Assembly: GCA_910587795.1 (NCBI GenBank)
Contig: CAJUNH010000004.1
Span: forward strand, 66,008-130,007
Length of the DNA stretch: 64,000 bases
Source: an uncultured Christensenellaceae bacterium
GTDB lineage: Bacteria > Bacillota > Clostridia > Christensenellales > CAG-314
Direction: 5' to 3'
The position numbers were made by a program, and so were the translations under genes. This document shows, one piece after another, positions 2 through 23,367 of the stretch. Each line of letters begins with the position of its first letter. The first letter of the stretch is position 1. The notes under the pieces are model-generated. The model was not told the DNA's origin. It saw only the letters and a program-made list of their open reading frames with translations, and did not search any database.

Positions 2-733
2 AACGGTTACAACATTAACAAGGTAGACATAACGTCTTTGTCTGTAAGAGATATATTCGGCGGTTACAATGCGGCACTGTTTGGAATATGGCCTTCTAGT
101 TGGAAAAACAACGGAATGGTAAATCCGAATACGTTTATGTATTTGCCGGCATTGATTGCAAGTATAGCAGTGGGCATAGCGTTAATAGTGGCAACGCTTA
201 ATCTTGCAAAAAGAGTATATGAAATAATCTTTATGTATTTTTGTATGCCCGTATCTATGTCAACTTTGCCTTTGGATGACGGAGCAAGGTTTAAAAATTG
301 GCGCGAGCAGTTCGTAACTAAGATTATTCTTGCCTACGGCGCGGTACTGTCAGTAAACGTGTTTGTGCTTTTGTTACCGTTGATTCAGCAAATGAGTATA
401 CCGAGTATTGGAAGTTTCGGTAATGCCATATTTACAATCTTTATGATTGTCGGCGGTGCAATGGTGATACCTGCAGGACAAACTTTGTTTGCAAGGCTTT
501 TCGGTGCTGCCGACGATATGCATGCGGGCGGCGGTTGGTTGAGAAGTGCGTACTACGGTGGAAGAATGGTAGGAGCAATGACGATAGGACTTGCTGCAAA
601 GGGAATAAAAGGAATTACGCATATAGCAAGGAGAAAACGTGAAAGTAGCAATAATAACGATTCGTCGGGAGATGACGAAAAGTATTCGGAAGAAAGCGAT
701 GATACAGAATCGTCGGAAGGAGGTGGCGAGTGA
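2..733 (+). CDS. Polytopic membrane protein of a conjugative element (VirB6/TrbL-like role); 5' end lies outside the window
   Basis: The frame is open from nt 2, so the listed start at 38 is an internal TTG. The product has several long hydrophobic segments and a Ser/Asp/Glu-rich tail. Its stop overlaps the GTG start of the next gene (GTGA at 730-733). Confidence 0.5.
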   Translation, partial: NGYNINKVDITSLSVRDIFGGYNAALFGIWPSSWKNNGMVNPNTFMYLPALIASIAVGIALIVATLNLAKRVYEIIFMYFCMPVSMSTLPLDDGARFKNWREQFVTKIILAYGAVLSVNVFVLLLPLIQQMSIPSIGSFGNAIFTIFMIVGGAMVIPAGQTLFARLFGAADDMHAGGGWLRSAYYGGRMVGAMTIGLAAKGIKGITHIARRKRESSNNNDSSGDDEKYSEESDDTESSEGGGE

Positions 734-3375
734 GAATAATACCTAAAAAGATAAAGGTAAAAAATACAGTGTGGAAATGCTACTCAATGATTGACGTAAT
801 AGTAGCGCTTATTGTATTCGCAGTTATCTTTGCTGCAATAACAGCGGGAAATTGGATTGTCGCGTTAATATTAGGACTGTTGGCAGTAGGAATGTTTATG
901 CCTACGCCTGACGGTATTTTTTATACTTGTGTTTATGAGAATATACGTTTTTTATTTTCTAAAAAGAAATACACAAAAGGCTCAAAGAATGTCAAGACGG
1001 ACGTTGATGTTATTGTGGACTTAAAAGAAATTAAAGAGAGCGGTTTGCTTGTTTACAAAGGCGGTATGTTTGGACGTGTAATTAAGGTAGGACAAAAGAA
1101 CTTCGGTATCGAGGACGTTGTGCAACAAAACTTAGACATTAACTACTTTGCGAATGCGTTAAAACAATTAGACCAAAATCAATGCGCGGATATTGTAAAG
1201 ATAGACCGTCCCGTAAATTTAGACGGATTTGCAAGCGAGTTATTTGACCGCATATCCGCTGTCAATGCAAGCAACGAAGAAAGTGGAATTAAAAAGATAA
1301 AGGAAAGTATCCTACGAGAACGTATTGACAGAATAGACCGTTTAAATAATATTCGCAAACAGTATTTGTCGGATTATTACATAGTGGTTTATGGAAGAAA
1401 CGAGTTAGACATTGAAAACACTGCGGTAAACGTAGCAAGCGAAATTGGAAAGTGCGGACTCAATACGCAACTGCTTGAAATGAAAGAAACGGCGGTTTTC
1501 GTCAAGTACAGTTATTCGCGGAATTTTGACGAACGTGAGATTAAAAACTTAGATAAGGACGATTTGTTGGAATGGGTAAAGCCCAAAGAGATCACTTTTC
1601 ACGCAAATAGATATGAGATTGACGGAACGCAAGCTTCGGTGTTGGCAGTATCGGAATACCCATTAAGAGTTAAGAACGCTTGGGGAGCGGAACTGTTTAA
1701 TATTCCAAATACAAAAGTTGTCCTGCATGTTAAACCCGTAGATAAGTTCAAGGCAATTCGACGTATTGATAGATGTATAGGCGAAATGGAAACAAAGCAA
1801 ATAATTACGGACAAGGCAAGCGAAGCGAATAGTGCGGAAACGCATCGGGCTACTATGGACGAGTTGTTAAACGCTTTGCAAACGGAAAATGAAAGTTTGT
1901 TTGACGTTACATTGACCGTGACAGCCTACAACTATGCAGATAAAGATAACTACAAAAAGAATGCTCGTCGCGCTATGCTCACGGGCAATTTTAGACCTTC
2001 GACATTGTACGGATTACAAATTGACGGTTTCAAGTCGGCAAATATTTCGCCCGTATCTTTGTTGAAGAATATGGAACGCGGAATAAATAGTTCGAGCCTT
2101 GCAGCCACGTTTCCGTTTGTACGCACATTTGTAATGGACGATGGCGGAATAATGTTGGGCGAGAATAACAAGAACGGTTATCCGTTTATTTTTAATATAT
2201 GGAAACGCGGCAACTTGTACCAAAATTCAAACGGTATGATAATAGGCAAATCGGGAAGCGGCAAATCTTTCTTTTTGAAAAATCTAATATTGAACGAGTG
2301 GGCAAACGGTACAAGGGTAATAGTGCTTGACCCTGAAGCGGAATATTTGGCATTGACAAGAAATCTGTACGGCAACGTCATTAACGTCGGTAACGCAAGG
2401 GAAGGCAGAATAAACCCGTTTCATATTTACAAGATTTTGACTGAGGACGGAACGCCGGCGGACAGTAGAGTTACGTTTAACACGCATTTAAAGATGTTGG
2501 AGAGTTTCTACAAGATTGTGCTTGCGGACGCGCCGTTGGACGTAATAGAACTAATAAACAACTTGACTGTGGAAACGTACAACAATATGGGTATTAACGA
2601 AAATACTGATTGTTCAAACTTTCCGGCGGATTACTTTCCCGTTTTCTCGGACTTGTTGGAAACATTGCAAAGCAAAGATAAATCCAAGATGGACGAACTG
2701 ACGTTAAGAGATATGCGAACGGCGGAATTGTATTTACAAAAATTTGTAACGGGCAGGTACTCGGATATTTGGAACGCGCCTAGTACGTTAAAGGTAAACG
2801 CAAATCTTATTGATTTTGATTTTCAATCCCTGTTTGCTAATAAGAACAACGTCGTTGCAAACGCGCAAATGTTGTTGGTTTTCCGTTTCATAGAGCAAGA
2901 AGTTATTAATGCAAGGGAACGCAATAAGAACGGAGCAAATTTGAGAACGCTAATAATAGCGGACGAAGCGCACTTGTACATAGACCCGAAGTTTCCTATT
3001 GCGTTGGACTTTTTCTATTCGATGAGTAAAAGAATAAGAAAGTACAACGGAAGTTTCATACCCGCCACGCAGAACATAGCGGATTGGAATGCCAACGAGG
3101 AATTGAGAGGCAAGACTAGCGCAATAATTAAGAACAGTCAGTATACCTTTATATTTAAGTTGTCAGCGCCGGACATGAAAGACGTGTTGGACGTTTACAA
3201 AACGGGCGACAGTTTTAATGAGGAGGAGCAGCGGCAAATAATATCTGCGGTTACGGGGCAAGCATTTTTTGTGGGTTCGACGGAGTTGCGCGCATCAGTA
3301 AGAATACAAGCGGGGAATACGGCAATGAATTTGTTTAGCGAAGAACAAACGGAGGAGGACGAAAGTGACAGTTAA
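730..3375 (+). CDS. VirB4/TraE-family conjugative-transfer ATPase with N-terminal two-TM (VirB3-like) segment
   Basis: 881 aa. Walker A is GKSGSGKSFFLKN and the Walker B-like motif is LIIADEAHLYID. The N-terminus has a hydrophobic pair (VIVALIVFAVIFAAI, IVALILGLLAVGMF). The gene follows a polytopic membrane protein, as in Gram-positive T4SS modules. Confidence 0.8.
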   Translation: MRIIPKKIKVKNTVWKCYSMIDVIVALIVFAVIFAAITAGNWIVALILGLLAVGMFMPTPDGIFYTCVYENIRFLFSKKKYTKGSKNVKTDVDVIVDLKEIKESGLLVYKGGMFGRVIKVGQKNFGIEDVVQQNLDINYFANALKQLDQNQCADIVKIDRPVNLDGFASELFDRISAVNASNEESGIKKIKESILRERIDRIDRLNNIRKQYLSDYYIVVYGRNELDIENTAVNVASEIGKCGLNTQLLEMKETAVFVKYSYSRNFDEREIKNLDKDDLLEWVKPKEITFHANRYEIDGTQASVLAVSEYPLRVKNAWGAELFNIPNTKVVLHVKPVDKFKAIRRIDRCIGEMETKQIITDKASEANSAETHRATMDELLNALQTENESLFDVTLTVTAYNYADKDNYKKNARRAMLTGNFRPSTLYGLQIDGFKSANISPVSLLKNMERGINSSSLAATFPFVRTFVMDDGGIMLGENNKNGYPFIFNIWKRGNLYQNSNGMIIGKSGSGKSFFLKNLILNEWANGTRVIVLDPEAEYLALTRNLYGNVINVGNAREGRINPFHIYKILTEDGTPADSRVTFNTHLKMLESFYKIVLADAPLDVIELINNLTVETYNNMGINENTDCSNFPADYFPVFSDLLETLQSKDKSKMDELTLRDMRTAELYLQKFVTGRYSDIWNAPSTLKVNANLIDFDFQSLFANKNNVVANAQMLLVFRFIEQEVINARERNKNGANLRTLIIADEAHLYIDPKFPIALDFFYSMSKRIRKYNGSFIPATQNIADWNANEELRGKTSAIIKNSQYTFIFKLSAPDMKDVLDVYKTGDSFNEEEQRQIISAVTGQAFFVGSTELRASVRIQAGNTAMNLFSEEQTEEDESDS

Positions 3376-5269
3376 AACAAAATATATGTTAACAAGCGTA
3401 CTGTTTGTGATACTTTGTTTAATTGCTTTATTGGCGGTCGTTACGTTACAAGAAACGCCAACGGCAAACGCAGTTAGTATGGTAACAATATTCAAAACAC
3501 GAGGGGTTATGGGTACTTTTGACAACCCTTATTTAGTAGGAACACCGGAAGGTTGTTTTGACGTTACCATACAGGGAACGTCAGGCGCAAGCGAAACAGG
3601 CGGAACATTGGAAAACGATTGCGTACTTAATTGGTATTATTGCGTAATAAAGGTGGAAACGACCAATAGGTATACAAACCATAAATATTTTAAATTGGAA
3701 AAAGATGGTGTCGCTATATATACTGAGGAGTTGTCGGGGAAATATGCTTTGACGTTATATAGCGGAGCGTTAAACGATGGTGAGTATGTATTGACGTATA
3801 CGTCGTCATATAAGTATAACGGTGTAGGTCATAGCGGCAGTTACAATTTTAGATTTCGCGTTGATAGGACTGCACCTATAAACGAATTAAAAGCGGGCGG
3901 AGGAAATCTAGCAAGTGGCGGTAATACGTCGAAAAACATTACTTATACAGCAATAGACCCGAACTTCAGTAGATTGTATTATAAGTCGCCAACAGCAGTT
4001 AGTTACAGCTCAACAACGGCGAACAGTTATTCGGTTGAAGCAAAACCGAGTAACTCCGGTTGGTGGTATTTTTATGCAACTGATGCAGTGGGCAATACTT
4101 CCGCTAAAGTAAGCGCATATATGGATTGCGTTCCGCCAAATATGACGTTGAGTAAAGGAATGAGTTTTGGAACAACTGTCGGTAATACTATTTCAGTATC
4201 TGCAACGGATGAAGTAAGTACATGTAAACTTTACATAAAATTTGAAAGCGAAGAATGGTTTTCAAACGGAAACACATATACCATACCCGATACCGAACGT
4301 AACGGTAGATATTATTTTTACGCAGAGGACGGAAACGGCAATAGAACGGAAACGAGTTGGATAGTTTTGAGTACGGAAGAACCGTCGGGAAGTCTTATTA
4401 AATCCGATAGTGATAATAGCGTTAAGTTTGTGTGGGACAATGAATATTGGTCGGCAACGTTAGACGGTAAAAGTTATACGGAAGGTAGGATAATAAGCAA
4501 CGAAGGCGAACACGAAATAGTGTTATCTAATAATGCGAATAAAACCAAAAAGTATATGTTTAAAATTGACCACTGCTACAAAGCGGTAAGTCAGACTCCT
4601 GCAACCTGTATTAAGAACGGTGCCGTAAAATATGAGTGCAGTCAATGCGGAGATAAGTATGTCGAAACGGTATATACAAGCGGACACAGGTACGACGTAA
4701 CGTCAACGCCGTCGTCTTGCACTGAAAGCGAACATATATCTTATACTTGCAGTTTGTGTGGCGCAAAGTATGAAACGGAAGGAAACTATCCTTCGGGACA
4801 TAATTATGTAAGCACGGTTACAAAAGAACCTACTTGTACAATGGAAGGCGAACGGAGCGTGGAATGTAGTAAATGCGGAGACGTTTACATTGTAACCTTA
4901 GCCGCAAACGGACACAACTATGAAATAACGGATATTACAACGTCAAAAGGAAAGACCACGCGGACTTATACATGTAAAGATTGTAAGCATAGCTACAAGC
5001 AAGAACTTGGAGATCAGTACGAAGAAATATCTAACTATGTGGAATATCTGTTCCAGCAATACAGTCCGTATATGTGGTGGGCATTGCTTGCATCCGCAGG
5101 CGTATGGAGTATTGTAATAGGTGTGATGATAGCGATAGCACACAAGAACGAGGACAAAGAGAAAGCAAAAAAGATGCTTGTAAACTATGTCATAGGATTA
5201 GTCGTCATAGCAGTTATCCTTGTTGCTTGTCCGTATTTAATAAGGGGAATAGCGGCATTAGTAACTTAA
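3365..5269 (+). CDS. Membrane-anchored surface protein with tandem Cys-rich (CxxCG) repeats
   Basis: 634 aa. It has an N-terminal signal/anchor (LTSVLFVILCLIALLAVV) and C-terminal TM helices. There are four ~33-aa repeats of the type TPATCIKNGAVKYECSQCGDKYVETVYTSGHRY. The GTG start overlaps the end of the ATPase gene. Confidence 0.55.
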   Translation: MTVKTKYMLTSVLFVILCLIALLAVVTLQETPTANAVSMVTIFKTRGVMGTFDNPYLVGTPEGCFDVTIQGTSGASETGGTLENDCVLNWYYCVIKVETTNRYTNHKYFKLEKDGVAIYTEELSGKYALTLYSGALNDGEYVLTYTSSYKYNGVGHSGSYNFRFRVDRTAPINELKAGGGNLASGGNTSKNITYTAIDPNFSRLYYKSPTAVSYSSTTANSYSVEAKPSNSGWWYFYATDAVGNTSAKVSAYMDCVPPNMTLSKGMSFGTTVGNTISVSATDEVSTCKLYIKFESEEWFSNGNTYTIPDTERNGRYYFYAEDGNGNRTETSWIVLSTEEPSGSLIKSDSDNSVKFVWDNEYWSATLDGKSYTEGRIISNEGEHEIVLSNNANKTKKYMFKIDHCYKAVSQTPATCIKNGAVKYECSQCGDKYVETVYTSGHRYDVTSTPSSCTESEHISYTCSLCGAKYETEGNYPSGHNYVSTVTKEPTCTMEGERSVECSKCGDVYIVTLAANGHNYEITDITTSKGKTTRTYTCKDCKHSYKQELGDQYEEISNYVEYLFQQYSPYMWWALLASAGVWSIVIGVMIAIAHKNEDKEKAKKMLVNYVIGLVVIAVILVACPYLIRGIAALVT

Positions 5270-5367
5270 TAGAAATTTTTTTAAAAACTTTTCAAAAAAC
5301 TATTGACAAAAACAAAAAAATGTAGTAATCGTATTAACACGATGAACAAATTTTAAGGAGGTCGCTT

Positions 5368-5721
5368 ATGAACGCAGCAAAAGTAATAGCAAAAGCGGAA
5401 CGCGGTGAAGGGTTGACGGTAGAAGAAATAAAGATTTACCAAGCAAATGCAAAGCCGGTCAAACAAGTGTACGGCAAGTACGGAACACTTAAAAGAAAGT
5501 ATCTTGAAGAAAAAGGTATAGATTGGACGATAGCGGATTTGCCTACATACTTGCACAACGTAGACAAGCAGGCGGACGAACTGTATGAAGGTATGTACTC
5601 AAGACTAATGTGTAATGAGAAGTATAAACGCACAGGCGACTTCCTAGAAGATTTGCATAGACAAACGGAAGTGCAGCATCTCATCGAAGAAGAAATCTTA
5701 AATGAGATAGTGTATGTGTAG
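5368..5721 (+). CDS. tnpV: TnpV-like transposon/ICE accessory protein
   Basis: 117 aa. The pattern GKYGTLKRKYLEEKG ... ADLPTYL ... EEEILNEIVYV matches what I recall of the TnpV family of clostridial mobilisable transposons. An RBS (AAGGAGG) lies 7 nt upstream. Confidence 0.6.
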   Translation: MNAAKVIAKAERGEGLTVEEIKIYQANAKPVKQVYGKYGTLKRKYLEEKGIDWTIADLPTYLHNVDKQADELYEGMYSRLMCNEKYKRTGDFLEDLHRQTEVQHLIEEEILNEIVYV

Positions 5722-5732
5722 AGAGGTGTAAC

Positions 5733-5843
5733 ATGCGTATAGTAATAACTGTATTTAAAGGAATTGCTATAGGAATAGTAGTGGTAGCAGTATTTGTAAT
5801 GAACTGCATAGGCGCAATAATCTGCGCCATTACACAGGGGTGA
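5733..5843 (+). CDS. 36-aa hydrophobic peptide (MRIVITVFKGIAIGIVVVAVFVMNCIGAIICAITQG)
   Basis: It is absent from the supplied track because it is under 60 aa. It has an ATG with RBS GAGAGGTG 5 nt upstream and codes a single TM helix. It sits tightly between tnpV and the RHH gene. Confidence 0.35.
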   Translation: MRIVITVFKGIAIGIVVVAVFVMNCIGAIICAITQG

Positions 5844-5850
5844 AAGGACT

Positions 5851-6075
5851 ATGCAAAAGAAAGAGAATACGCCTAAACGGATTGCGAGACGCAATTACGA
5901 GGCAAGGCATAAGGAAGAGCGGTTGGAAAAATCTAAGGTTTGGGGAACAAGCATCGATAGAGCATTAGCCAATGAGATAGACGAGTTTCTAGAACAGCAC
6001 AACATAAAAAAAGTCGAACTGATATACGCAGGGTACAAAGCCTTGCAAAGTCAGTACGGTCCTAAAAAAGAATAA
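5851..6075 (+). CDS. Small basic protein, probable ribbon-helix-helix DNA binder
   Basis: 74 aa with a basic N-terminus. The layout is beta-strand/helix/helix (VWGTSID - RALANEIDEFLEQHN - KKVELIYAGYKAL). It lies upstream of the Xis/Int region. Confidence 0.4.
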   Translation: MQKKENTPKRIARRNYEARHKEERLEKSKVWGTSIDRALANEIDEFLEQHNIKKVELIYAGYKALQSQYGPKKE

Positions 6076-6083
6076 AGACAACG

Positions 6084-6110
6084 AGAGCGAGGGCGTATGG
6101 CCCTCGCTCT
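6084..6110 (+). terminator. 11-bp perfect stem-loop (AGAGCGAGGGC / GCCCTCGCTCT)
   Basis: The inverted repeat was read directly and has a 5-nt loop. Only a weak T-tract follows (TAGTTTGC). Confidence 0.45.
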
Positions 6111-6213
6111 TAGTTTGCAAAAAATATACTTGCCGAATGGCATAATGACGAACGGTGTTGGTTATTATGTCGACACCAATTTCGTCCTAAAAAATAAAAG
6201 GAAGGAAAAAGAG

Positions 6214-6438
6214 TTGGAACAAGATTTGGCATCAAAGAAATTGCTTACCGTAATTGAAACGGGCAAGGTATTGGGAATAGGAAGAATAAGAGTTTACGAA
6301 TTAATAAAAGGTGGCTTTTTACCCGCATTGAATATTGGCGGATTAAAAGTGAGACGTGAAGCAATAGACGAATTTCTAACAAAATACGAGGGGTACGACT
6401 TCTCAAATATTAAAAATATTGTCAAGATGAATTCTTAA
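6214..6438 (+). CDS. Excisionase-type helix-turn-helix protein (Xis-like)
   Basis: The HTH_17/MerR-like motif is LLTVIETGKVLGIGRIRVYELIKGGFLPALNIGGLKVRREAIDEFL. I prefer the TTG start at 6214, which follows RBS AAGGAAGG. The listed start at 6097 lies inside the upstream hairpin. Confidence 0.55.
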   Translation: MEQDLASKKLLTVIETGKVLGIGRIRVYELIKGGFLPALNIGGLKVRREAIDEFLTKYEGYDFSNIKNIVKMNS

Positions 6439-6453
6439 AGGATGTGATAAACT

Positions 6454-6625
6454 ATGGTTGAATTAAGTATTAGGAAACGGCAAAGAAAAAACGGGACCGT
6501 TTACGAGTATCGATTTGAAATCGCTACTGTAGATGGTAAGCGCAAATGGGAAACAAAGTGTGGATTTAAGACAAAAGCAGATGCATTGAAAGCAGGTAAT
6601 GCAGCATTAAGTCATTATGAGAAGA
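6454..6625 (+). pseudogene. int: Tyrosine integrase, N-terminal arm-DNA-binding fragment only (truncated)
   Basis: MVELSIRKRQRKNGTVYEYRFEIATVDGKRKWETKCGFKTKADALKAGNAALSHYEK is the typical N-terminus of Tn916/phage-type integrases. Similarity stops at about aa 57. The ORF then runs into unrelated AT-rich sequence and ends at 6711. No SAM-like or catalytic domain follows. Confidence 0.6.
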
Positions 6626-6707
6626 TGAATACGAAACAATATATTGCATTGTTGTTGATAAACAATATTCTAATATTCAAGCGATGCAACAATCGTTTGG
6701 ACAAAAT

Positions 6708-7436
6708 ATGATCGAGAACATATCGATAATATTGAATACGGAATTGTGTAATAAAACTAAATTTATTTTATTATCTAAATTAGCATTCTTACGAGAAAAA
6801 GCGGAGTTGTATTCAAATTATGTGTATTTGTCTAAAATAACCAAGTCTCATTATTTAAGAGATGAAATACAGCATCAATCAGAGCAGTCTGTCAAAGCTT
6901 CAAAAATATACGAATCTATGAATATCATTGCCAGTATAATTGATTTTAAGTGCGATGATCTTTATTTGACATATAATTATACTTACATATACGATATTGT
7001 AAGTCATATTGTTACTACATATAATTTGCATAATAAGGATAAAATAATTTTGCCAAAATTAGCAAATGGTGATTTATCTGTTGTTGGTTTGGATGGTAAC
7101 GCGAGAATATCCAATATATTTAATAATGAGTTAGAATTGTCTCTTGGTGAAAAGGATATTAAAAAGAAAGTAATGAGCATTTATACGGATCCCAAACATA
7201 TTAAAGTATCTGATCCTGGGCATGTCGAGGGAAATCCCTTATTTATTTATGTTAGACAATTATGTAGCGATGAAGTAGTTAGAAGTCACTTGGGGTTTGA
7301 TAGTGTTGCCGATCTTGAAGATAGATACGAAAGAGGAGGCGTTGGAGATAAATTAATTAAAGAAATGTTATTTGATACTATTAAAAGTTTGGTTAAACCA
7401 TTAAATCATAAAATACAATCTAAGTTTTTAAATTAA
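6708..7436 (+). CDS. AT-rich ORF with degenerate tryptophanyl-tRNA-synthetase-like similarity (no HIGH/KMSKS)
   Basis: The C-terminal block DLEDRYERGGVGDKLIKEMLFDTIKSLVKPL resembles the conserved TrpRS C-terminal block (ELE..YEGKGYG.FK.DLAEVV...LKPI). MNIIASIIDF..DDLYL...YIYDIVSHIVTTYN aligns to L(M)AADILLY..DLVPVGEDQ.QHLELTR..AERFN with the catalytic residues replaced. The comparison is from memory only. Confidence 0.35.
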   Translation: MIENISIILNTELCNKTKFILLSKLAFLREKAELYSNYVYLSKITKSHYLRDEIQHQSEQSVKASKIYESMNIIASIIDFKCDDLYLTYNYTYIYDIVSHIVTTYNLHNKDKIILPKLANGDLSVVGLDGNARISNIFNNELELSLGEKDIKKKVMSIYTDPKHIKVSDPGHVEGNPLFIYVRQLCSDEVVRSHLGFDSVADLEDRYERGGVGDKLIKEMLFDTIKSLVKPLNHKIQSKFLN

Positions 7437-8422: not shown

Positions 8423-8450
8423 TTGACTAAATTGTAAAAAATGCTATAAT
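8423..8450 (+). promoter_or_regulatory. Sigma70-type promoter (TTGACT - 16 nt - TGcTATAAT)
   Basis: Read directly. It has an extended -10 TG and points into the toxin island. Confidence 0.5.
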
Positions 8451-8621
8451 AAGCAACGCATAATCTTCAAGGTGCCAAATATGATTATGTACAGTTAAGG
8501 AGGTGATGTTCATGAAAGCCCTACTTAAGGCACTGATGCTACTTTACTCAAACAAGAAAATAACAAAAACAAAATCGTTGTCTTTTTAAAAAATATTTTG
8601 AAAAAATTTTTGCTCAAACTA

Positions 8622-8650
8622 TTGACAAATCGATTTTTATGGTTTATACT
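8622..8650 (+). promoter_or_regulatory. Consensus sigma70 promoter of cassette A (TTGACA - 17 nt - TATACT)
   Basis: Read directly, 138 nt upstream of the com-like start. Confidence 0.6.
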
Positions 8651-8787
8651 AACGCCATAAGTCGAACGAATGTTCTATTTATACAAACATATTTACATTC
8701 GACGCGCTCAGTAACCAAATTATAAATCAATTAATAGTACAAAAAATATAATACGGTATTAATACAACATAGGGGGAGAATTAAACA

Positions 8788-8949
8788 ATGAAATACGTTT
8801 ATTGCATTATATGCGGACACAAATTGCTGGAAGGACACGACGGCAGCAGCGTCAAGGTAAAATGCAGCAAGTGTAAAAGCATATTAGAGGTCAATATTTT
8901 AAATCAAAACACAACCGTTACACCGATAAAAACGGACATAACTAAATAA
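8788..8949 (+). CDS. com: Mu Com-like zinc-ribbon protein (53 aa)
   Basis: Not in the ORF track because it is under 60 aa. MKYVYCIICGHKLLEGHDGSSVKVKCSKCKSILEV... matches the Com pattern MK.I.C..C.KLL.......I.I.C..CK. An RBS (GGGGGAG) lies 7 nt upstream. Confidence 0.6.
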   Translation: MKYVYCIICGHKLLEGHDGSSVKVKCSKCKSILEVNILNQNTTVTPIKTDITK

Positions 8950-9026
8950 CGCCAAGAAAAACTCCCGAAAGCGAGGACGGTAAAGACGGCATAGAGGTAC
9001 ACAAAGTACCTTTGTGCCGTCTTTTT
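8949..9026 (+). terminator. Conserved 77-nt element, copy 1: leader plus 16-bp hairpin plus U-tract
   Basis: GACGGCAUAGAGGUAC acaaa GUACCUUUGUGCCGUC (with G-U pairs) is followed by TTTTT. It sits between the com stop and the holin RBS. Confidence 0.7.
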
Positions 9027-9052
9027 ATATAAAATTAATAAGGAGAAAGCAA

Positions 9053-9421
9053 ATGGAGCACTTAGAACAAATCATAACAATAGCATCGGCAGGCGTAGGA
9101 CTGTTAGCAACGGTCACAGGCTTTTTAATTCCTTTGGTAAAAAACGTAAAAGCAAAAAACAGACTGACGGCTTTAAATAAATTAAGCGTATTGCTAAATT
9201 CGCTTATTGTCGAAGCCGAACAGTTTGCAAACTTTACGGGCGCGGAAAAGAAACAGTACGTTTTGACAAAAGCAAACCGTTACGCGCTGGAAAATAACAT
9301 TCCTTTTGAAGAATCGACGGTTGACGCCGAAATAGAAAAAATTGTCAAATTAAGCAAAAACGTTAACGTCGGCGCACCCAAATCCGCAGCGGAAAAAGTT
9401 ACCTCGGCGGCAGATAAATAA
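9053..9421 (+). CDS. LL-H-family-like phage holin (single N-terminal TM)
   Basis: 122 aa counted from the ATG that follows RBS AAGGAGAAA. The listed GTG at 9014 lies inside the terminator stem. The TM segment is IITIASAGVGLLATVTGFLIPLV. It is followed by the helical pattern ...IVEAEQF..FTGAEKKQYV......L....I......VDAEIEKIV, which is typical of Holin_LLH proteins. Confidence 0.55.
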   Translation: MEHLEQIITIASAGVGLLATVTGFLIPLVKNVKAKNRLTALNKLSVLLNSLIVEAEQFANFTGAEKKQYVLTKANRYALENNIPFEESTVDAEIEKIVKLSKNVNVGAPKSAAEKVTSAADK

Positions 9422-9525
9422 AACGGATACTTTTTTAAAAGCGTTTCCTGCCAAAACGCAAACATCGTTAAGGTATATAACTGCGATAAAACAGTCGGCT
9501 GATGTCCGTTTACGACAAAAGATCA
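9422..9525 (+). pseudogene. Relic of an rhs 5' region
   Basis: About 105 bp is roughly 80 percent identical to 17631-17735, which lies inside the second rhs gene (codons NGYLFKSVSCQNN...SRLTSVYDQ). It lies immediately after the holin stop and lacks the first ~455 bp of that gene. Confidence 0.7.
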
Positions 9526-9548: not shown

Positions 9549-10457
9549 ATGAATGGTGTGGTAGATAATAAAGAATTAATCGTTCGTAAAAAAATGGCGG
9601 CTTTTTTAGAAAAATTACTGCGATATTTTGGATATGATTTTCGTCACGATATTTATAAACAAATAGTTTATAACGAAACTGACTGTCAAACTCCATTAGA
9701 GGAAAAAATTAAAAACTATTATGATGCTTATGTTTACTTGCTAAGTAATTATAAAAATCCGTTTTCGCAAAATGTATTTAAAAGATTTTTGTATATTTTA
9801 ATTGGTGTCGAACCAGATCATGCTTTGGTAGTACGTGTCACTAGCTTTTATTATCATTTAAATGATTTGCCGCCAATAGAAAAAGCCACAGAATTTCATA
9901 TGCAAGCATTTTCTGCGATGCACGATTTAGATGAAGAAATTCAAACGGTGGTATCACTAATGTTATTTAATTACTCTTTGGTAAGATATGGAATCCCCAC
10001 AGTGAGAATTTGCAGAAAAGAACTTAATCAATACTTTACCGCTAGAAAAAAATTCTTAAACGGAATCAAGACCGATATGTATAATTTTGCTTTAAATCTT
10101 ATTGCTAGTTCTCAAACGCAGGACAAGTCTTATTACAAAAATTTAAAGCCCATTACTGTTAAAGATTTATATAACGCCATTTATGCGGACAAAGAAATGC
10201 TTTATGAAAGATACGGCATAGTTCATGTGGGTATATTTGGTTCTTTTGCCAAAGGTAATAATCGCATTGACTCTGATGTTGATTTGTTGGTTCAGTTTGC
10301 TGATGACCTTACTTTTGACGAAAAAGTAGATATGTCTAAAAAAATTACAGAGCATTATTTCATTAAATTTAAACGTTTTGTCGATTTAAACGAAATTGGA
10401 AAGTACGTAATCGATAAAATATTAAAGGAAACTCATAATTATAAAAAAATATTTTAA
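9549..10457 (+). CDS. Helical-domain + minimal nucleotidyltransferase (MNT-like) fusion protein
   Basis: 302 aa. The C-terminal motif is GIFGSFAKGNNRIDSDVDLLVQF (GS...DxD NTase fold). The N-terminal ~200 aa are helical, with a possible degenerate Fic-like segment (MHDLDEEIQTVVSLMLFNYSLVRYGIP). RBS GGAGG. Confidence 0.6.
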   Translation: MNGVVDNKELIVRKKMAAFLEKLLRYFGYDFRHDIYKQIVYNETDCQTPLEEKIKNYYDAYVYLLSNYKNPFSQNVFKRFLYILIGVEPDHALVVRVTSFYYHLNDLPPIEKATEFHMQAFSAMHDLDEEIQTVVSLMLFNYSLVRYGIPTVRICRKELNQYFTARKKFLNGIKTDMYNFALNLIASSQTQDKSYYKNLKPITVKDLYNAIYADKEMLYERYGIVHVGIFGSFAKGNNRIDSDVDLLVQFADDLTFDEKVDMSKKITEHYFIKFKRFVDLNEIGKYVIDKILKETHNYKKIF

Positions 10458-13400: not shown

Positions 13401-15706
13401 AAAACGGCTATAATTTCCGCGGTCAACTTGCCTGTATGATGATTTCGTTGGGAAAAACAATGCCGCAAAAAGATATATACGATTTCTACCGCACATCAAA
13501 GGATTATATTATCGAAAAATCGGCTGTAGATAATAAATGTATTGATTTTTCCGAAACTGTATTGTATACTATTAATAACGAAATTACAAAAAATTATGAT
13601 ATCTTCCCGCTGCACAGCAATTACACGTCTTTAAAGGGAACCAAACCGATACTGGCGGAAAAGAACGTCGGGTCTCAATTAGATAAAGACAGATCCTTCC
13701 ATTTTAATTTACTGTCGCGCAGCTATGCTTATGTTGCCGACGGACGTCCGTTGGTATACGGATTCAATCACACAAACGAAGGCACAATACTAATGCGGGC
13801 ATATATAAGTCAAAATGCAGGCAAACAGTATTTCTTTGAGGGAAAAGATACGCAAGGTAATACTTTAGGTCTGTATAAGGCAAGCAACGGTAAATTATGC
13901 GTGGATTTAAAAGATACTATCATAACTACGGGACTGGATTTTATCGAGAAAAAATGGCAGACAATCGGCTTAACATTCGGTACCGAAGTTACGTCAACAT
14001 CTTTGTCTAGTTCGTCCACAAGAAAGATTTGCGTATATTTGGATGAAGAAGTATACGAAACGGTAATTCAAAAAACGTTGGATTTTACAGGGCTGTCGTA
14101 TTCTATAGGACGTACTATGGATAAAATTAACGACAGCACATTACCGGACGGCGGCGAATGTTATCCGTTGTACGGGCAAATCGAAATGCTGACTGTCGAT
14201 AGTAATTACTGTTATAACAGTAAAATGCAATATTTGGCAGCTCAGTTAAATAATGTTTCCTGCGTTACGGAACGTGACGAATTTGGATTGTTAAAACGTA
14301 AGGGAGTGCAAAATCACAAACAAAGTATATGGGCAAAAAATATAACCTATAAAAGGCGTTCCCAAAAATCCAAGTATTATTCTAAAGTTGTAGAAGCGGA
14401 AGATATTTGGACTGGTGCAAATCATTCAAAACGTTCGTATGTAACGGACGATTTAGGACGAATAACGTCGATTACTGATACAACGTTCGGCGGACATACT
14501 TACGAATACGACTCCTCCGGCAGAGTGATTAAGGACGACGGTAAAAGTATTTTCTACGATAAAAACGGCAATATTACAAACCTGTGCGGAGTAGGAATGG
14601 AATACAGTGACGCAACGTACAGCCTTATAACCAAAGCGGATGGCAACACTGTTAGATACGATGCTAACGGCGATTATTTAGTCACAGGTTGGAGAAGCAG
14701 ATATTTTGATTATTTTAGAAATCAGCTGATTGTGTTTGGAACAACCGGCGCGCAGTATCAATATACGTATAACCATCTTGGGCAAAGAATAAGCAAAATC
14801 GAACCGAACGGCACTACGCAATATGTTTACAGCGGATTAAAGCTGCTTACGGAAATTACCGACAATTATCGGCTGGACTTCCTGTATGACGAAAACGACG
14901 AACTATTCGGCTTTGTAAAAAATAACGTAAACAAATACTTTTACATAAAAGATATTTTGGATAATATACTCGGTATTGTAGATGAAAATGGTACTCTTGT
15001 TGGAAAATACAGTTACACAGCATTCGGTAAAACAACCGTAACGTTGGATCAGTTCGGTATTGCCAATCTCAATCCTTTCCGTTTTAAATGTTGCTATCAG
15101 GATTACGAATCGGGTATGTACTTTATTAACGGCCGTTACTATATACCCGAATGGGGCAGATGGCTGACTTACGATAAGTCATCTATAGACTTTATGAGCG
15201 TCGGCAAACATAACCCGTTTGGATTAAATACGCTTTGTCCAGTAACGTACAAGCCGGGAACGGAAATTCCTGCATATAATGTACCGAATAACGAATTTAT
15301 AAAGTTTGTACCGTATCTTAAAGATGAATGGTTGTTTACAAACGGACCAGAGTTTTTCAAAGTAACAAATGAAGGCATAGTTATTATTGACGGCAGCAAG
15401 TCGGTATATAAAAGTACGTTGGCACTTGACGAGGAAAAAGAACATTCGCTGTATGTTTCTTTCGGTAACGTCGATGCTTATTTTGGTGTTAATTACCAAA
15501 AAGGTATAGGATTGCAAATGGATGCAAGCGTGGTGGCATTGGGTTACGACGGGAAATACGTTGACATTGAAATTTCTGTCCTAACAATTGGTGGTGGCGC
15601 AATGTGCAGTAGCGAAAGATTTTCATTAGCTTTCAAAGGCAAATTGGTGGGTTTTTCTATAAGTATTAACATACAAGCAATTTTAGACACAGTATTTGGA
15701 GGATAA
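10475..15706 (+). CDS. Rhs/YD-repeat polymorphic toxin 1 with two LamG-like inserts and an unassigned C-terminal toxin domain
   Basis: 1743 aa with many YD repeats (YTYDNDGRLISV, YTPDGRFVESV, HDKYGRIIKV, YEYDSSGRVIKDDG). The core-closing block is YFYIKDILDNILGIVDENGTLVGKYSYTAFGK...NPFRFKCCYQDYESGMYFINGRYYIPEWGRWLTYD. LamG_3-like segments span nt 13085-14215 (FSVQFWFKPENL...FRGQLACMMISLG; ILMRAYIS...LYGQIEMLTV). The last ~180 aa carry no motif I recognise. I see no signal peptide, LXG or PAAR domain at the N-terminus. Confidence 0.85.
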   Translation: MNRGLKKYTKQLTQTVGNAGTVSVNINKDDANMHMILPVLKTIGLAPIELKLIYNYQDRSVEGLFGKGFKLNVYSKLMASGNNYKLLNADGSQDFYTNGCFNKETNLVITAQSDGYNNVLGYQINDRKGNIVEYSAEQTEYPKLIKNDGETFTLDFIKSYPTIENGRGDLVRFITTKNRVERVVYSRNEAAVLIVEFTYDNDGRLISVVYTDGTGRTSTDYALNSTSIIYGSNTVSLKDNISAYFVRVAFDSLGKATTIEEGFGDTFLNERKIALSYAENKTTVTNAKNNSINYLFDSEGLPLFQVDSQGIAIETEVDKDTKRLLAKSSPILANCSNTIYSGKASCFSNNGVTVIDKFCTDDILKKFINAVSTVKGSGTLTCEVPYLGLPGDSIMAVIWGKQLKPLSQGKVSVSLSVDNETDTDFFKKDTADSNFDFLTLGVTANKSFSKIVMQINLENSTEIELCGIHILKKKYGSAYKYDDYGNCTEVENTGKTMALRYNEKSLLTDIIGADSLYSKNEYNTKNKVERSITAFGTTITNVYDDFNHLVKTSMQTADNSQIMETTRTYTPDGRFVESVTNEMGKSTKFTHDKYGRIIKVLDAMGCAAESNYADNGLLKKLILGTGSESRSATYRYYNNRQIMSIALSGSQTYEFNYNDRLDLSEILLNETVLYQFVYDELGNVIAEKYGLNSGKMLFEYNKFGNIVKTKYLAPNSNVPQIKYQYEYDSLQMLTRVVDGKGKEIVRYTYDNDGKRISEIVNGSVINNNYDIKGDLVLQARQHDNEVIYQSFERADRSKSESPQSLIESFGKENYLCFFEGHAVLTKGDEAIIPKVTDERILEIHRDGFLPFINTWSSQLSYTFNKSFSNKGFSVQFWFKPENLSAAGNLFYCTSTDGRIIQVYYQNKKLVLSLDGSEIKTVNEAVEGWNFMSINVVNDNGRNKYCLTLNGRITSSNTLSAFDLGNNPQFFIGSAPQNGYNFRGQLACMMISLGKTMPQKDIYDFYRTSKDYIIEKSAVDNKCIDFSETVLYTINNEITKNYDIFPLHSNYTSLKGTKPILAEKNVGSQLDKDRSFHFNLLSRSYAYVADGRPLVYGFNHTNEGTILMRAYISQNAGKQYFFEGKDTQGNTLGLYKASNGKLCVDLKDTIITTGLDFIEKKWQTIGLTFGTEVTSTSLSSSSTRKICVYLDEEVYETVIQKTLDFTGLSYSIGRTMDKINDSTLPDGGECYPLYGQIEMLTVDSNYCYNSKMQYLAAQLNNVSCVTERDEFGLLKRKGVQNHKQSIWAKNITYKRRSQKSKYYSKVVEAEDIWTGANHSKRSYVTDDLGRITSITDTTFGGHTYEYDSSGRVIKDDGKSIFYDKNGNITNLCGVGMEYSDATYSLITKADGNTVRYDANGDYLVTGWRSRYFDYFRNQLIVFGTTGAQYQYTYNHLGQRISKIEPNGTTQYVYSGLKLLTEITDNYRLDFLYDENDELFGFVKNNVNKYFYIKDILDNILGIVDENGTLVGKYSYTAFGKTTVTLDQFGIANLNPFRFKCCYQDYESGMYFINGRYYIPEWGRWLTYDKSSIDFMSVGKHNPFGLNTLCPVTYKPGTEIPAYNVPNNEFIKFVPYLKDEWLFTNGPEFFKVTNEGIVIIDGSKSVYKSTLALDEEKEHSLYVSFGNVDAYFGVNYQKGIGLQMDASVVALGYDGKYVDIEISVLTIGGGAMCSSERFSLAFKGKLVGFSISINIQAILDTVFGG

Positions 15707-16005
15707 TGATGTACGATTTTCATCTTGAAATAAAGAGAGGAATGTTGTTTCGCAGAATGTATTGCTGTAAATGCGGCACAAAACTGAAACGGCGTAGTAC
15801 CTCTCGGTTAGTCAATAAAGGCGAAATAGGATATATCAATAATATTTTACCTGGAATTTATTTTGGTGGGCCAACCTCGCAAATTCAGGTTCGGTACGTC
15901 TATATATGCCCAAACTGTAAACAAATAACTACCTACGATCAGCAATGCATAATAGCCAAAAAACAAAAGCAAGCCAAAACAAAAATTTTAGAAGAATATA
16001 AGTAA
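15706..16005 (+). CDS. Candidate immunity protein 1 (zinc-ribbon, 99 aa)
   Basis: TAATG overlap with the rhs stop. It has CCKCG...CPNCK cysteine pairs, and its position is that of a cognate immunity gene. Confidence 0.5.
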   Translation: MMYDFHLEIKRGMLFRRMYCCKCGTKLKRRSTSRLVNKGEIGYINNILPGIYFGGPTSQIQVRYVYICPNCKQITTYDQQCIIAKKQKQAKTKILEEYK

Positions 16006-16057: not shown

Positions 16058-16352
16058 GCTCAAATTGAAAAAGCCAATCAAATTACTTGGAGAAAAAAAT
16101 CTCTATATATTGCAGCGCAATCAAAACAAAAAATAACGTAATTCTAATAAACTTAGCAATATTCCGGAATAAATCTTGATGTTTATGGCAGTTACTAAGT
16201 TGTTTTTGCCCCGTAACGCCGTAAAATGTTTTTCGCTCCTAACACTTTTTACTGTATCGAATACAAAAACACTCTTACTCAAACAAGAAAATAACAAAAA
16301 CAAAATCGTTGTCTTTTTAAAAAATATTTTGAAAAAATTTTTGCTCAAACTA

Positions 16353-16381
16353 TTGACAAATCGATTTTTATGGTTTATACT
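16353..16381 (+). promoter_or_regulatory. Consensus sigma70 promoter of cassette B
   Basis: Identical to 8622-8650. Confidence 0.6.
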
Positions 16382-16518
16382 AACGCCATAAGTCGAACGA
16401 ATGTTCTATTTATACAAACATATTTACATTCGACGCGCTCAGTAACCAAATTATAAATCAATTAATAGTACAAAAAATATAATACGGTATTAATACAACA
16501 TAGGGGGAGAATTAAACA

Positions 16519-16680
16519 ATGAAATACGTTTATTGCATTATATGCGGACACAAATTGCTGGAAGGACACGACGGCAGCAGCGTCAAGGTAAAATGCAGCA
16601 AGTGTAAAAGCATATTAGAGGTCAATATTTTAAATCAAAACACAACCGTTACACCGATAAAAACGGACATAACTAAATAA
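16519..16680 (+). CDS. com: Mu Com-like zinc-ribbon protein, second identical copy
   Basis: Identical to 8788-8949. Confidence 0.6.
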   Translation: MKYVYCIICGHKLLEGHDGSSVKVKCSKCKSILEVNILNQNTTVTPIKTDITK

Positions 16681-16757
16681 CGCCAAGAAAAACTCCCGAA
16701 AGCGAGGACGGTAAAGACGGCATAGAGGTACACAAAGTACCTTTGTGCCGTCTTTTT
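16680..16757 (+). terminator. Conserved 77-nt element, copy 2
   Basis: Identical to copy 1. Confidence 0.7.
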
Positions 16758-16783
16758 ATATAAAATTAATAAGGAGAAAGCAA

Positions 16784-17164
16784 ATGGAGCACTTAGAACA
16801 AATCATAACAATAGCATCGGCAGGCGTAGGACTGTTAGCAACGGTCACAGGCTTTTTAATTCCTTTGGTAAAAAACGTAAAAGCAAAAAACAGACTGACG
16901 GCTTTAAATAAATTAAGCGTATTGCTAAATTCGCTTATTGTCGAAGCCGAACAGTTTGCAAACTTTACGGGCGCGGAAAAGAAACAGTACGTTTTGACAA
17001 AAGCAAACCGTTACGCGCTGGAAAATAACATTCCTTTTGAAGAATCGACGGTTGACGCCGAAATAGAAAAAATTGTCAAATTAAGCAAAAACGTTAACGT
17101 CGGCGCACCCAAATCCGCAGCGGAAAAAGTTAAGGCGGCGGCAGATAAATACAAAATAGGCTGA
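16784..17164 (+). CDS. LL-H-family-like holin, second copy (126 aa, divergent last residues)
   Basis: Identical to the first copy up to ...SAAEKV, after which it ends KAAADKYKIG instead of TSAADK. Confidence 0.55.
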   Translation: MEHLEQIITIASAGVGLLATVTGFLIPLVKNVKAKNRLTALNKLSVLLNSLIVEAEQFANFTGAEKKQYVLTKANRYALENNIPFEESTVDAEIEKIVKLSKNVNVGAPKSAAEKVKAAADKYKIG

Positions 17165-22005: not shown

Positions 22006-22386
22006 ATGTATAAATGGGTTCAAAAAAAAGAGAGAAAAATACAATCTCTAAGAGAAATGCCTTATGATAGTTTATCCGTATGTGAAAAGCTTGAAATTGT
22101 TCAAAACAAATTAAGCAGATACCCGAGAATAGAAAAAATTAGCTATGAAGAGTTTGAATTGGCTTGTTTGGCTAATTGGGAGTTAGATTTTGATGTTCGT
22201 GGGGTAGGGTATGAAATTGTCCATATTACCGAAAATAAAGTGTGTTTTCTTATCGACGTTAAGAAAATAAACGGCAAATGCACCTGGTTCAAAGAAGAAA
22301 CCTATGCAACATCAGCAGAATTACTTGAGAAGGTTAGAATATACGGACAAACAATCAAACAAATATGGGATGAAGTGACTTGTTAA
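22006..22386 (+). CDS. Candidate immunity protein 2 (126 aa)
   Basis: It starts 4 nt after the rhs stop. It is a small acidic cytoplasmic protein in the position of a cognate immunity gene. Confidence 0.5.
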   Translation: MYKWVQKKERKIQSLREMPYDSLSVCEKLEIVQNKLSRYPRIEKISYEEFELACLANWELDFDVRGVGYEIVHITENKVCFLIDVKKINGKCTWFKEETYATSAELLEKVRIYGQTIKQIWDEVTC

Positions 22387-22390
22387 TTAA

Positions 22391-22903
22391 TTTTCTATCG
22401 GTATAGGCTTTGCAGTAGCGGGTTGGGCAATAAGTTCTGCAATTTCAGGTAATTGGAGCGTAAATGCCTTAAATGATGCTGTTGCAGATGCAATATTCTT
22501 TGCTGGCGTATTCCTATTTATATCCACTAGCGTAAGCGCGATTAAGTACGCGTACAGAGCGGATCCGTATCCTATGGCTGAAGCATATCCACCAAACAAT
22601 GGAGCTGTTCCTGGCACTGAAGAAATGATAACATTGGAACCTGGTGTATATGGGCGATATGGTGGAGTTGGTCCTAAGAGTAGATATATTACTAATTATG
22701 GTGCTTCACCAGAGCAATTGTCCTTGCCACCAAGCAATAATAGAATTTTTACAGAAATACATGTTCTCAAGCCAATTAAGCATGTACAAAAAGCGATTGT
22801 TGCCCCATGGGCACCTTGGGGAGGTATTGGTGGCGGTCAACAATACTATTTGCCCAAAACAATAGAGAAACTAATTAAAGGAGGATTTATCCGATTAGGA
22901 TGA
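22391..22903 (+). CDS. Orphan (start-less) toxin module: hydrophobic linker + TNT-family NAD+ glycohydrolase domain
   Basis: There are 171 sense codons directly after TAA (22388-22390), with no start codon or RBS at the 5' end. FSIGIGFAVAGWAISSAISG... is followed by YPPNNGAVPGTEE.ITLEPG...RYGG......LPP......VLKPI.....APWAPWGGIGGGQQYYLPKTIEKLIKGG. This matches the TNT (tuberculosis necrotizing toxin) domain pattern, including the RYG and GGGQQY blocks. Confidence 0.75.
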   Translation, partial: FSIGIGFAVAGWAISSAISGNWSVNALNDAVADAIFFAGVFLFISTSVSAIKYAYRADPYPMAEAYPPNNGAVPGTEEMITLEPGVYGRYGGVGPKSRYITNYGASPEQLSLPPSNNRIFTEIHVLKPIKHVQKAIVAPWAPWGGIGGGQQYYLPKTIEKLIKGGFIRLG

Positions 22904-23251: not shown

Positions 23252-23328
23252 ACGCCAAGAAAAGCTCCCGAAAGCGAGGACAGTAAAGACGGCATAGAGG
23301 TACACAAAGTACCTTTGTGCCGTCTTTT
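23252..23328 (+). terminator. Conserved 77-nt element, copy 3 (2 substitutions)
   Basis: ACGCCAAGAAAAgCTCCCGAAAGCGAGGACaGTAAAGACGGCATAGAGGTACACAAAGTACCTTTGTGCCGTCTTTT. Here there is no com gene upstream, and an RBS plus ATG (23368) lie downstream. Confidence 0.7.
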
Positions 23329-23367
23329 AATTTAAAACAAAAAAATAAATATAAAGGAGAAAAAATT

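Follow-up and report, generated by a model that had tools for sequence, protein, structure and literature searches.

Is the 77-nucleotide (nt) sequence that occurs three times in a 64,000-nt stretch of contig CAJUNH010000004.1 (hereafter the window), from an uncultured Christensenellaceae bacterium, a plain transcription terminator, or is it an RNA switch through which a small protein could control the genes that follow it? Two of the copies separate the gene for a tiny zinc-ribbon protein, a remote relative of the Com protein of phage Mu, from the gene for a holin. We consider it highly probable that a genuinely conserved, structured RNA is present here and that the Com-like genes are its partners. 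Evenly balanced, in our judgement, is the further proposal, made from sequence comparison, that it serves as a transcription attenuator responsive to the Com-like protein, apparently under a LexA-box promoter.

The sequence was present, as the initial annotation had claimed, at 8949-9026, 16680-16757, and 23252-23328/9 (77 to 78 nt), and its 37-nt hairpin core was found three times with no mismatches, compared to none in 100 shuffled sequences. All three sites stand, but the independence of copies 1 and 2 does not: both are located inside one exactly duplicated block of 858 base pairs (bp), at 8544-9401 and 16275-17132, which is 100% identical and has unrelated flanks, and the window therefore contains only two independent copies. 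The same tandem layout recurs in a related assembly (L002 and L003, which are one contig; L001 to L076 are our labels for loci fetched from relatives), which rules out an assembly artefact, and the identity of the block suggests that the head of the operon, with its regulatory parts, was duplicated recently or is still undergoing gene conversion. Copy 3 is isolated, with similarity to copy 1 that starts at 23252 and fades past the U-tract; it shows the 2 substitutions described previously and also diverges from the fifth U of the tract onward. No further degenerate copies were identified in the window, the next-best score of the covariance model described below being 23 bits as compared to 89.

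The placement relative to the flanking genes was less regular than the initial annotation implied. Copies 1 and 2 do start right after a stop codon, but copy 3 starts 13 nt past the TAA of the open reading frame (ORF) at 22900-23238. The distance of about 20 to 40 nt to the next ribosome-binding site (RBS) applies to copy 3, where it is about 26 nt from the U-tract, but not to copies 1 and 2, where it is 13 nt. The genes following copies 1 and 2 were confirmed as holins by matches to PF09682 and to PHROG holins, whereas the tail-fibre-like label of the gene following copy 3 found no support in hidden Markov model searches.

A consensus structure predicted with RNAalifold divides the element into an A-rich leader (GCYAAGAAAAGA), a short hairpin P1 (UCCCGAAAGCGAGGA), a purine linker (CAAU), a long hairpin P2, and a tract of 4 to 8 U. 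P1 has the consensus UCCCG-AAAG-CG(A)GGA, with 5 bp, while P2 has 19 to 20 bp overall and combines a conserved lower stem (AAAGACGGC/GYCGUCUUU) with an upper stem that varies freely. The annotated stem of 16 bp, GACGGCAUAGAGGUAC/GUACCUUUGUGCCGUC, was recovered with 2 G.U pairs included and reaches 19 bp when AAA/UUU is added; the accompanying U5 holds for copies 1 and 2, but copy 3 has U4. The hairpin in the window, AAAGACGGCAUAGAGGUAC-ACAAA-GUACCUUUGUGCCGUCUUU, gave about -35 kcal/mol together with the U-tract (z = -6), and its identification as an intrinsic terminator is borne out by a G+C-rich stem-loop located directly before the U-tract and co-oriented with the upstream gene. The extra conservation 5' of the hairpin was also confirmed, as leader, P1, and linker are kept across relatives, and the sequence of P1 and the linker stays the same while the upper stem of P2 changes completely.

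Paired cells amounted to 97% in a model-based alignment of 25 distinct copies, compared to 44% to 54% in slid controls. Double compensatory changes were seen at 7 pairs of P2, and the covariation score was reached by none of 500 shuffles. P1 is nearly invariant in close copies, and its variants are mostly neutral to the structure, such as a U opposite G or a G.U at the loop-closing pair; L022 contains UCUCG/CGAGG, and L058 contains UUCUG-AAU-CAGGA, in which a C-G pair has changed to U-A. Because G.U pairs occur in both P1 and P2 and the element is strictly co-oriented with the flanking genes, selection is considered to act on the plus-strand RNA. A hidden ORF in the conserved 5' part was rejected, given the indels between copies and the lack of a start codon after GAGGA. 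Searches against Rfam returned only a tRNA for the whole window at gathering score and, around copy 3 at E≤10, a best local match of E=0.13 with nothing relevant.

To sample the element in relatives, a covariance model was built from 21 distinct intact copies and used with a threshold of 44 bits. It identified 71 copies of at least 44 bits in the fetched loci and the window, 56 of which were distinct when ±40 nt of flank was counted, so that toxin islands of related Clostridia contain at least 56 distinct copies. A zinc-ribbon gene precedes 14 of the 56 copies, and in 10 of these a holin gene follows. Another 20 copies are located before a gene for a MEFKDRK-type protein, with the terminator intact, and 8 either keep the U-tract before a gene of another kind or are cut by a contig edge. 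The loci retrieved with the zinc-ribbon protein itself (homologues of 72% to 94% identity) represent a sample that is unbiased with regard to the element, and all of them showed the order zinc-ribbon gene, spacer of about 100 nt, holin, and RHS, with the element in every spacer. A pattern scan of 185,579 species genomes identified 7 species, all represented by metagenome-assembled genomes, 6 of which were titled Clostridia or Christensenellaceae and one Candidatus Fimimonas gallinarum (L021). It was also noted that the NCBI taxonomy places the latter in Myxococcaceae, which clashes with the Clostridia or Christensenellaceae titles of the other assemblies with such islands. The corresponding metagenome scan added 30 true loci, while scans of viral contigs gave no match to the element and a single chance match to the P1 core, within a coding region.

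The coupling between gene and element persists far beyond close relatives. The P1 core and a terminator were found directly after the zinc-ribbon gene in 10 of 12 lineages, with protein identities of 94%, 81%, 75%, 72%, 74%, 71%, 57%, 62%, 45%, and 41%, and the stop codon adjoins the element in copies 1 and 2 as well as in these 10 lineages. In most lineages, a gene for a holin or an RHS protein begins 8 to 45 nt further on. In L071 (62%), L073 (45%), and L075/76 (41%), the zinc-ribbon gene again has UCCCGAAAG(C/U)G(A/C)GGA behind it, and then a purine linker leading to a long hairpin and its U-tract, although the terminator stems of L073 and L075 are unrelated in sequence. An exact 15-mer beside a gene of 41% identity cannot result from recent transfer. 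In L076, the most distant lineage, the next gene encodes a Holin_LLH protein (PF09682, E=1e-4), and the rest of the operon a glycosyltransferase and a radical-SAM enzyme. Conversely, the element was absent from the holin-RHS operons that lack the zinc-ribbon gene (L061 to L068). Judged from these comparisons, the Com-like gene, P1 with its terminator, and the holin gene form an old conserved trio.

Additional regulatory genes were observed near some of the loci. In L056 (4427-6217; also in L027, L030, L052, and L054), a region upstream of the operon of zinc-ribbon gene, element, holin, and RHS contains genes for a LexA-like S24 repressor of 212 amino acids (aa), a 59-aa zinc-ribbon paralog of 40% identity, and a helix-turn-helix (HTH) or sigma region-4-like ORF, which may constitute a regulatory cascade. 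The paralog gene is followed by strong hairpins with faint element-like sequence (GCUAAGAA...GAGGA...terminator), for which the covariance model gave a score of only 17 bits. Furthermore, a gene for an HTH protein of about 95 to 115 aa (weak HTH_23/HTH_Tnp_4 matches) is located just upstream of the zinc-ribbon gene in L010 to L016, L058 to L060, and L066 to L068, or, in those of these loci that have no zinc-ribbon gene, upstream of the MEFK-like gene; the window contains no such HTH gene.

The initial annotation had called the zinc-ribbon protein a homolog of Mu Com. A remote relationship was upheld: the top PHROG match of the window protein and of every tested relative was phrog_6417 ('translational regulator', E 1e-7 to 4e-5), which Mu Com also matches (2.8e-10) in addition to its own family phrog_13819, the Mu Com query having been confirmed against the Mu record at 100% identity. 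Of 80 relatives retrieved when 1.84 billion representatives were searched with a profile, 23 match PF10122 (Zn_ribbon_Com), and the cysteine spacing (C6/C9/C26/C29) is the same as in Mu Com. Direct membership in the Pfam Com family was not supported, as neither Pfam nor NCBIfam assigned the 53-aa protein to Com. The AlphaFold2 model contains five beta strands (mean confidence score, pLDDT, 80), and no match to the protein was obtained with tblastn against 50,697 phage records. A reading of the Cys-rich peptide as a ribosomally synthesized and post-translationally modified peptide precursor, prompted by the family 2 glycosyltransferase and radical-SAM neighbors in L075/76, was rejected as unlikely, since the next gene encodes a holin and most contexts lack modification enzymes.

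What the element could do is constrained by its spacing. The distance from the U-tract to the start codon is 8 to 45 nt in the holin and MEFK contexts, with the exception of L019 (about 240 nt), and the holin RBS lies 8 to 35 nt past the U-tract across lineages. A promoter inside or after the element was rejected, as no sigma-70-like site was seen and there is too little room; because of this, the downstream genes are expected to be transcribed only by polymerase that has passed a strong terminator. The initial annotation had also considered a translation switch. In the consensus structure, both the Shine-Dalgarno (SD) sequence and the AUG of the holin gene are unpaired, and translational unmasking of the Mu type is thereby excluded; base pairs between the 5' motif and the holin RBS appeared in one minimum free energy fold and were not conserved. 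A candidate antiterminator helix, P0, pairs a 5' GCY with GGC of the 5' arm of P2; it is always pairable and extends to 5 to 7 bp in the UUGCC...GGCAAAG subfamily.

Mu Com is a translational activator that binds a short hairpin directly beside a second, inhibitory hairpin and opens the latter, and the loop motif selected for its binding is CC-N2-3-GAG (PMC6483171). The locus studied here resembles the Mu system in that the transcript also carries, immediately upstream, the gene for a small C4 zinc-ribbon protein, a short CC...GAG hairpin adjoins a second hairpin, and the gene under control is expressed late and has a costly or dangerous product. It differs in that the second hairpin is a terminator with a U-tract, whereas that of Mu sequesters the SD sequence and start codon, and in that the protein is only a remote relative, the host belongs to the Clostridia, and the genes are located in chromosomal toxin islands. 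By analogy with the Mu-like layout of a short hairpin beside an inhibitory hairpin that is here a terminator, protein-dependent antitermination would be the favored way of working, and we see even chances that it applies.

In the mechanism that we propose, the element would be a cis-acting leader RNA of the plus strand, placed as an attenuator right before dangerous genes (holin and RHS toxin, or the accessory operon). When the LexA-box promoter fires, the Com-like protein would be made first, and most transcripts would end at P2. Once accumulated, the protein would bind P1 and the linker on the nascent RNA and prevent or melt P2, and RNA polymerase would continue into the holin and toxin genes. 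Copies without a neighboring zinc-ribbon gene, such as the one at 23252-23329, would be gated in trans by the same protein.

The suggestion of a LexA-box promoter is based on the motif GAAC-N4-GTTC, of which the 64 kb contain only two sites (CGAACGAATGTTCT, 8663-8676 and 16394-16407), both at zinc-ribbon promoters and 13 nt past the -10; we take CGAACGAATGTTCT to be a candidate LexA/DinR box of the Cheo type from its resemblance to the consensus. Similar boxes were found upstream of zinc-ribbon genes in L001, L019, L069, and L071, with one perfect CGAACATATGTTCG among the last three. Together with the nearby LexA-like repressor in L056-type loci, the boxes suggest a colicin-like SOS induction of the toxin and lysis genes. 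It was also observed that the box overlaps an inverted repeat, GTCGAACGAATGT ... ACATTCGAC, at about 8661-8704, and that the lineages with the HTH gene of about 95 to 115 aa have no Cheo-like box.

The suggestion that copy 3 places its downstream operon in the same regulon gained support, as other lineages show the MEFK, 239-aa, 78-aa, and nucleotidyltransferase (NTase) genes of this operon in linkage with holin and RHS genes, in agreement with a shared regulon. In L019, the zinc-ribbon gene is followed by the element, a MEFK-like gene, and then holin and RHS, and in L061 to L068 genes related to the MEFK module directly precede the holin gene. The MEFKDRK 77-aa, 239-aa, and 78-aa proteins gave no match to Pfam, NCBIfam, or PHROG; they may assist the RHS system as accessory parts or in delivery.

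Several observations weigh against an attenuator controlled by the Com-like protein. We infer binding, termination, and read-through alike from sequence, and the same applies to the antiterminating direction and to SOS control. On the RNA side, P1 alone is weak (-2 to -5 kcal/mol, no better than shuffles) and showed no double compensatory changes in 25 intact close copies, so that the compensatory evidence for P1 comes from one lineage only (L058); P1 has CC-N6-GAG partly in the stem, as compared to CC(N)2-3GAG in the loop recognized by Mu Com; and P0 has in general three invariant or wobble pairs, not above shuffles, which leaves no statistically supported antiterminator. The DNA pattern with which most copies were retrieved itself requires the motif, whose invariance is thus partly an ascertainment effect. 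On the protein side, PF10122 did not match the window protein even at E≤10, and a Foldseek search of the model against BFVD returned generic zinc ribbons only, all with E>1e-3. The association is also incomplete: P1 is absent from two zinc-ribbon lineages, namely L069 and the 59-aa paralog in L056-type loci; 14 of the 56 copies lack the 3' lower arm and U-tract and have no holin or MEFK gene next; and 40 of the 56 have no neighboring zinc-ribbon gene. The last count corresponds to what the initial annotation had named as evidence for a generic terminator, an element widespread without com genes, but all of these copies are located within the same toxin islands, and trans targets or junctions between cassettes are still possible readings of them.

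Among the alternatives, the one that survives best, though we regard it as unlikely, is a constitutive leaky terminator that sets the stoichiometry, giving much mRNA for the small protein or immunity gene and little for holin and toxin, with P1 as a determinant of RNase processing or stability and the zinc-ribbon protein acting elsewhere. The anatomy of the terminator is canonical, and many copies follow small genes in immunity position without a zinc-ribbon neighbor. Furthermore, SOS-induced operons of the colicin and pyocin type have a terminator before the lysis gene, and an SOS-box promoter combined with such a terminator is the colicin design. The window shares with those operons the LexA-box promoter, the toxin with a gene in immunity position, the lysis gene that stands behind a terminator, and release of the toxin through lysis. 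It differs from them in the order, which is regulator, terminator, holin, and toxin, in having a phage-type holin as the lysis gene, and in a terminator accompanied by the conserved P1 and by a dedicated small protein predicted to be of RNA-binding type. A leaky terminator leaves unexplained why the exact P1 core stays beside zinc-ribbon genes down to 41% identity while all else changes, and why element and gene are lost jointly.

Less probable still is that the protein binds the element with another output, either stronger termination, and hence autorepression of the downstream genes, or control of mRNA stability or translation. The co-occurrence evidence applies equally to this alternative, the direction of the effect is not readable from sequence, and Mu Com itself works on translation; but the unpaired holin RBS and AUG leave no translational block to relieve, and a terminator of about -30 kcal/mol with a U-tract scarcely needs strengthening.

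We give little credence to the element being primarily a homology patch at the DNA level, a cassette junction for swapping toxin/immunity modules and operons in RHS islands, with the RNA structure representing just a cassette terminator. Copies do occur in arrays of 2 to 3, spaced 0.9 to 1.5 kb apart between orphan modules (L021, L022, L032, L043, and L053), and those in the window bracket cassettes. The truncated copies examined (L022, L032, L042, L050, L053, L054, and L056) are fused to orphan RHS C-terminal fragments (Hint/toxin), with a junction, GCTTTGCC/TGTATAGCC, that recurs behind differing upstream genes in L032, L053, L054, and L056. The separation of successive orphan toxin/immunity modules is a likeness to Rhs orphan-module arrays and integron attC sites; unlike attC, however, the element forms a perfect terminator when read from one strand, and neither R''/L''-L'/R' core sites in the alignment nor an integron integrase in the surveyed flanks was identified. 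The G.U-tolerant substitutions and strict co-orientation indicate selection on RNA, no recombinase core sites were seen, and the placement between zinc-ribbon gene and holin in distant lineages without arrays (L075/76) would be unexplained. The marking of toxin-cassette recombination junctions, seen in the truncated copies, is regarded as a secondary property of the element.

A small RNA derived from the 3' untranslated region and acting in trans, with a conserved single-stranded seed and P2 as its own terminator, is very improbable: a conserved 5' part, a covarying terminator stem, and a position always just 3' of a co-oriented gene are typical of such RNAs, but neither a conserved promoter nor a conserved processing signal was found, complementarity to possible targets was not convincing, and the tight spacing to the next RBS better suits a leader. 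A generic repeated terminator or intergenic repeat of the repetitive extragenic palindrome or miniature inverted-repeat type, without specific function, would account for multiple near-identical copies and is hardly credible given the confinement of the three copies to the toxin island within 64 kb, the drop in score to the next match, the lack of terminal inverted repeats, and the specific gene-class association.

An attenuator under control of the Com-like protein can also be compared with known leader systems. Like the targets of BglG/LicT (the RAT sequence), PyrR, HutP, and lambda N (boxB), it would contain a protein-binding RNA motif next to or overlapping a leader terminator, with a small hairpin as the recognized part; unlike them, it involves an unrelated protein family, lacks a supported antiterminator helix, and has no boxA-like element that we could find. 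Holin-mediated release of a large toxin is known from TcdE of Clostridioides difficile. A comparable, type 10 secretion-like release has been described for the Tc toxin of Yersinia entomophaga (PMC10847048). In such systems, as here, the genes for a holin and for a very large RHS-containing toxin go together, and restricted expression is expected; the literature on them concerns the secretion step and describes no comparable RNA gate. Likewise, literature searches on RHS/holin polymorphic toxins and on Com-like zinc ribbons in antitermination, together with a term search within one polymorphic-toxin review, returned no description of such a module. We regard the proposed arrangement as a putative Com-type protein-hairpin switch with transcription termination as its output.

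More tentatively, the Com-like zinc-ribbon proteins, whose function is so far known only from the translational activator of Mu, may extend to a broader family of antiterminators that bind RNA sequence-specifically, each with its own switch of P1 plus terminator. In gut Clostridia, an SOS-type promoter would fire this switch, which would coordinate a small regulon of holin, RHS toxin, and accessory MEFK/NTase operon for lysis-mediated toxin release. If so, a poorly understood class of tiny zinc-ribbon proteins would obtain a testable function, and the element would represent a new class of cis-regulatory RNA absent from Rfam. The switch would also indicate how uncultured gut Clostridia silence lethal holins and large RHS toxins until induction, with a bearing on interbacterial antagonism in the gut and on the release of very large toxins. 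The compact pair of a 53-aa protein and an RNA of about 75 nt could also provide an orthogonal switch of transcription in Firmicutes.

The locus is a bacterial chromosomal RHS polymorphic-toxin island adjoining the remnant of an integrative and conjugative element (ICE), and a phage is excluded. In the first cassette, the zinc-ribbon gene is followed by the element and the genes for Holin_LLH, an NTase-domain protein, and the RHS toxin, while the second lacks the NTase-domain gene but otherwise keeps this order, and a small gene in immunity position stands after each RHS gene. Beyond 26 kb, the window contains ordinary chromosomal genes, such as those for an AraC-type regulator and an alcohol dehydrogenase, and a tRNA-Ala gene (37686-37761).

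Table. Features of the toxin island in the window, and truncated element copies in loci of relatives
Feature	Position	Strand	Details
ICE end	38-7436		TrbL-like, TraG/VirB4-like ATPase, type IV secretion system pilin-like, TnpV, HTH_17, integrase arm-binding domain; directly upstream of toxin island
Duplication copy A, 858 bp	8544-9401	+	Promoter-like site, zinc-ribbon gene, element copy 1, most of holin 1
Sigma-70-like promoter, operon 1 (zinc-ribbon/holin/RHS)	8622-8650	+	TTGACA-17-TATACT; 11/12 consensus positions, consensus match only
LexA/DinR Cheo-box-like operator CGAACGAATGTTCT	8663-8676	+	13 nt past -10
C4 zinc-ribbon protein, 53 aa, remote Com-like relative, copy 1	8788-8949	+	
Element copy 1	8949-9026	+	Leader 8950-8962, P1 8963-8977, linker 8978-8981, P2 8982-9024, U-tract 9022-9026; 89.1 bits
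Holin 1, Holin_LLH, 122 aa	9053-9421	+	RBS AAGGAG 9039-9044
302-aa protein, C-terminal NTase domain	9549-10457	+	
RHS-repeat toxin 1, 1743 aa	10475-15706	+	
99-aa gene directly 3' of RHS 1	15706-16005	+	Putative immunity by position only; just a weak zinc-ribbon match
Duplicate promoter-like site, operon 2	16353-16381	+	Cheo-like box 16394-16407
Zinc-ribbon Com-like gene, copy 2	16519-16680	+	Identical to copy 1
Element copy 2	16680-16757	+	P1 16694-16708, P2 16713-16755
Holin 2, 126 aa	16784-17164	+	
RHS-repeat toxin 2, 1608 aa	17175-22001	+	
Post-RHS-2 genes	22006-23238	+	126-aa gene, orphan TNT toxin, 112-aa gene; the two small genes putative immunity by position only
Orphan TNT (tuberculosis necrotizing toxin-like) domain ORF, 109 aa	22574-22903	+	Overlaps 112-aa ORF 22900-23238
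Element copy 3	23252-23329	+	No zinc-ribbon gene adjoining; P1 23266-23280, P2 23285-23327, U4; 88.9 bits
Copy-3 downstream operon	23368-26165	+	MEFKDRK 77-aa, 239-aa, 78-aa, two NTase-domain proteins (233, 272 aa)
Truncated copies keeping leader, P1, P2 5' arm	L022 6351-6421, 7280-7350; L032 13527-13602; L053 129-206, 1589-1675; L054 333-410; L056 13117-13194		

A few minor features of the window were also noted. A near-consensus promoter (TTGACT-16-TATAAT with TG) and an ORF of 25 aa (ATG 8513, RBS AGGAGG) are located at 8423-8590, and the left edge of the 858-bp duplication falls within this ORF. An A/T-rich stretch of 45 nt ending in AAACTATTGACAAA, at 5266-5310 upstream of the TnpV-like gene, is 73% alike to 8585-8629/16316-16360 at the zinc-ribbon promoters. 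Inside the 3' part of RHS gene 2, at 21229-21257, there is a strong promoter-like site (TTGACA-17-TACAAT with TG), which could give constitutive expression of the small genes after RHS 2, with transcripts ending at copy 3. Finally, a direct repeat of 77 nt with 75% identity, possibly due to chance, was observed between the spacer of the holin and NTase genes (9415-9491) and the interior of RHS gene 2 (17624-17700).

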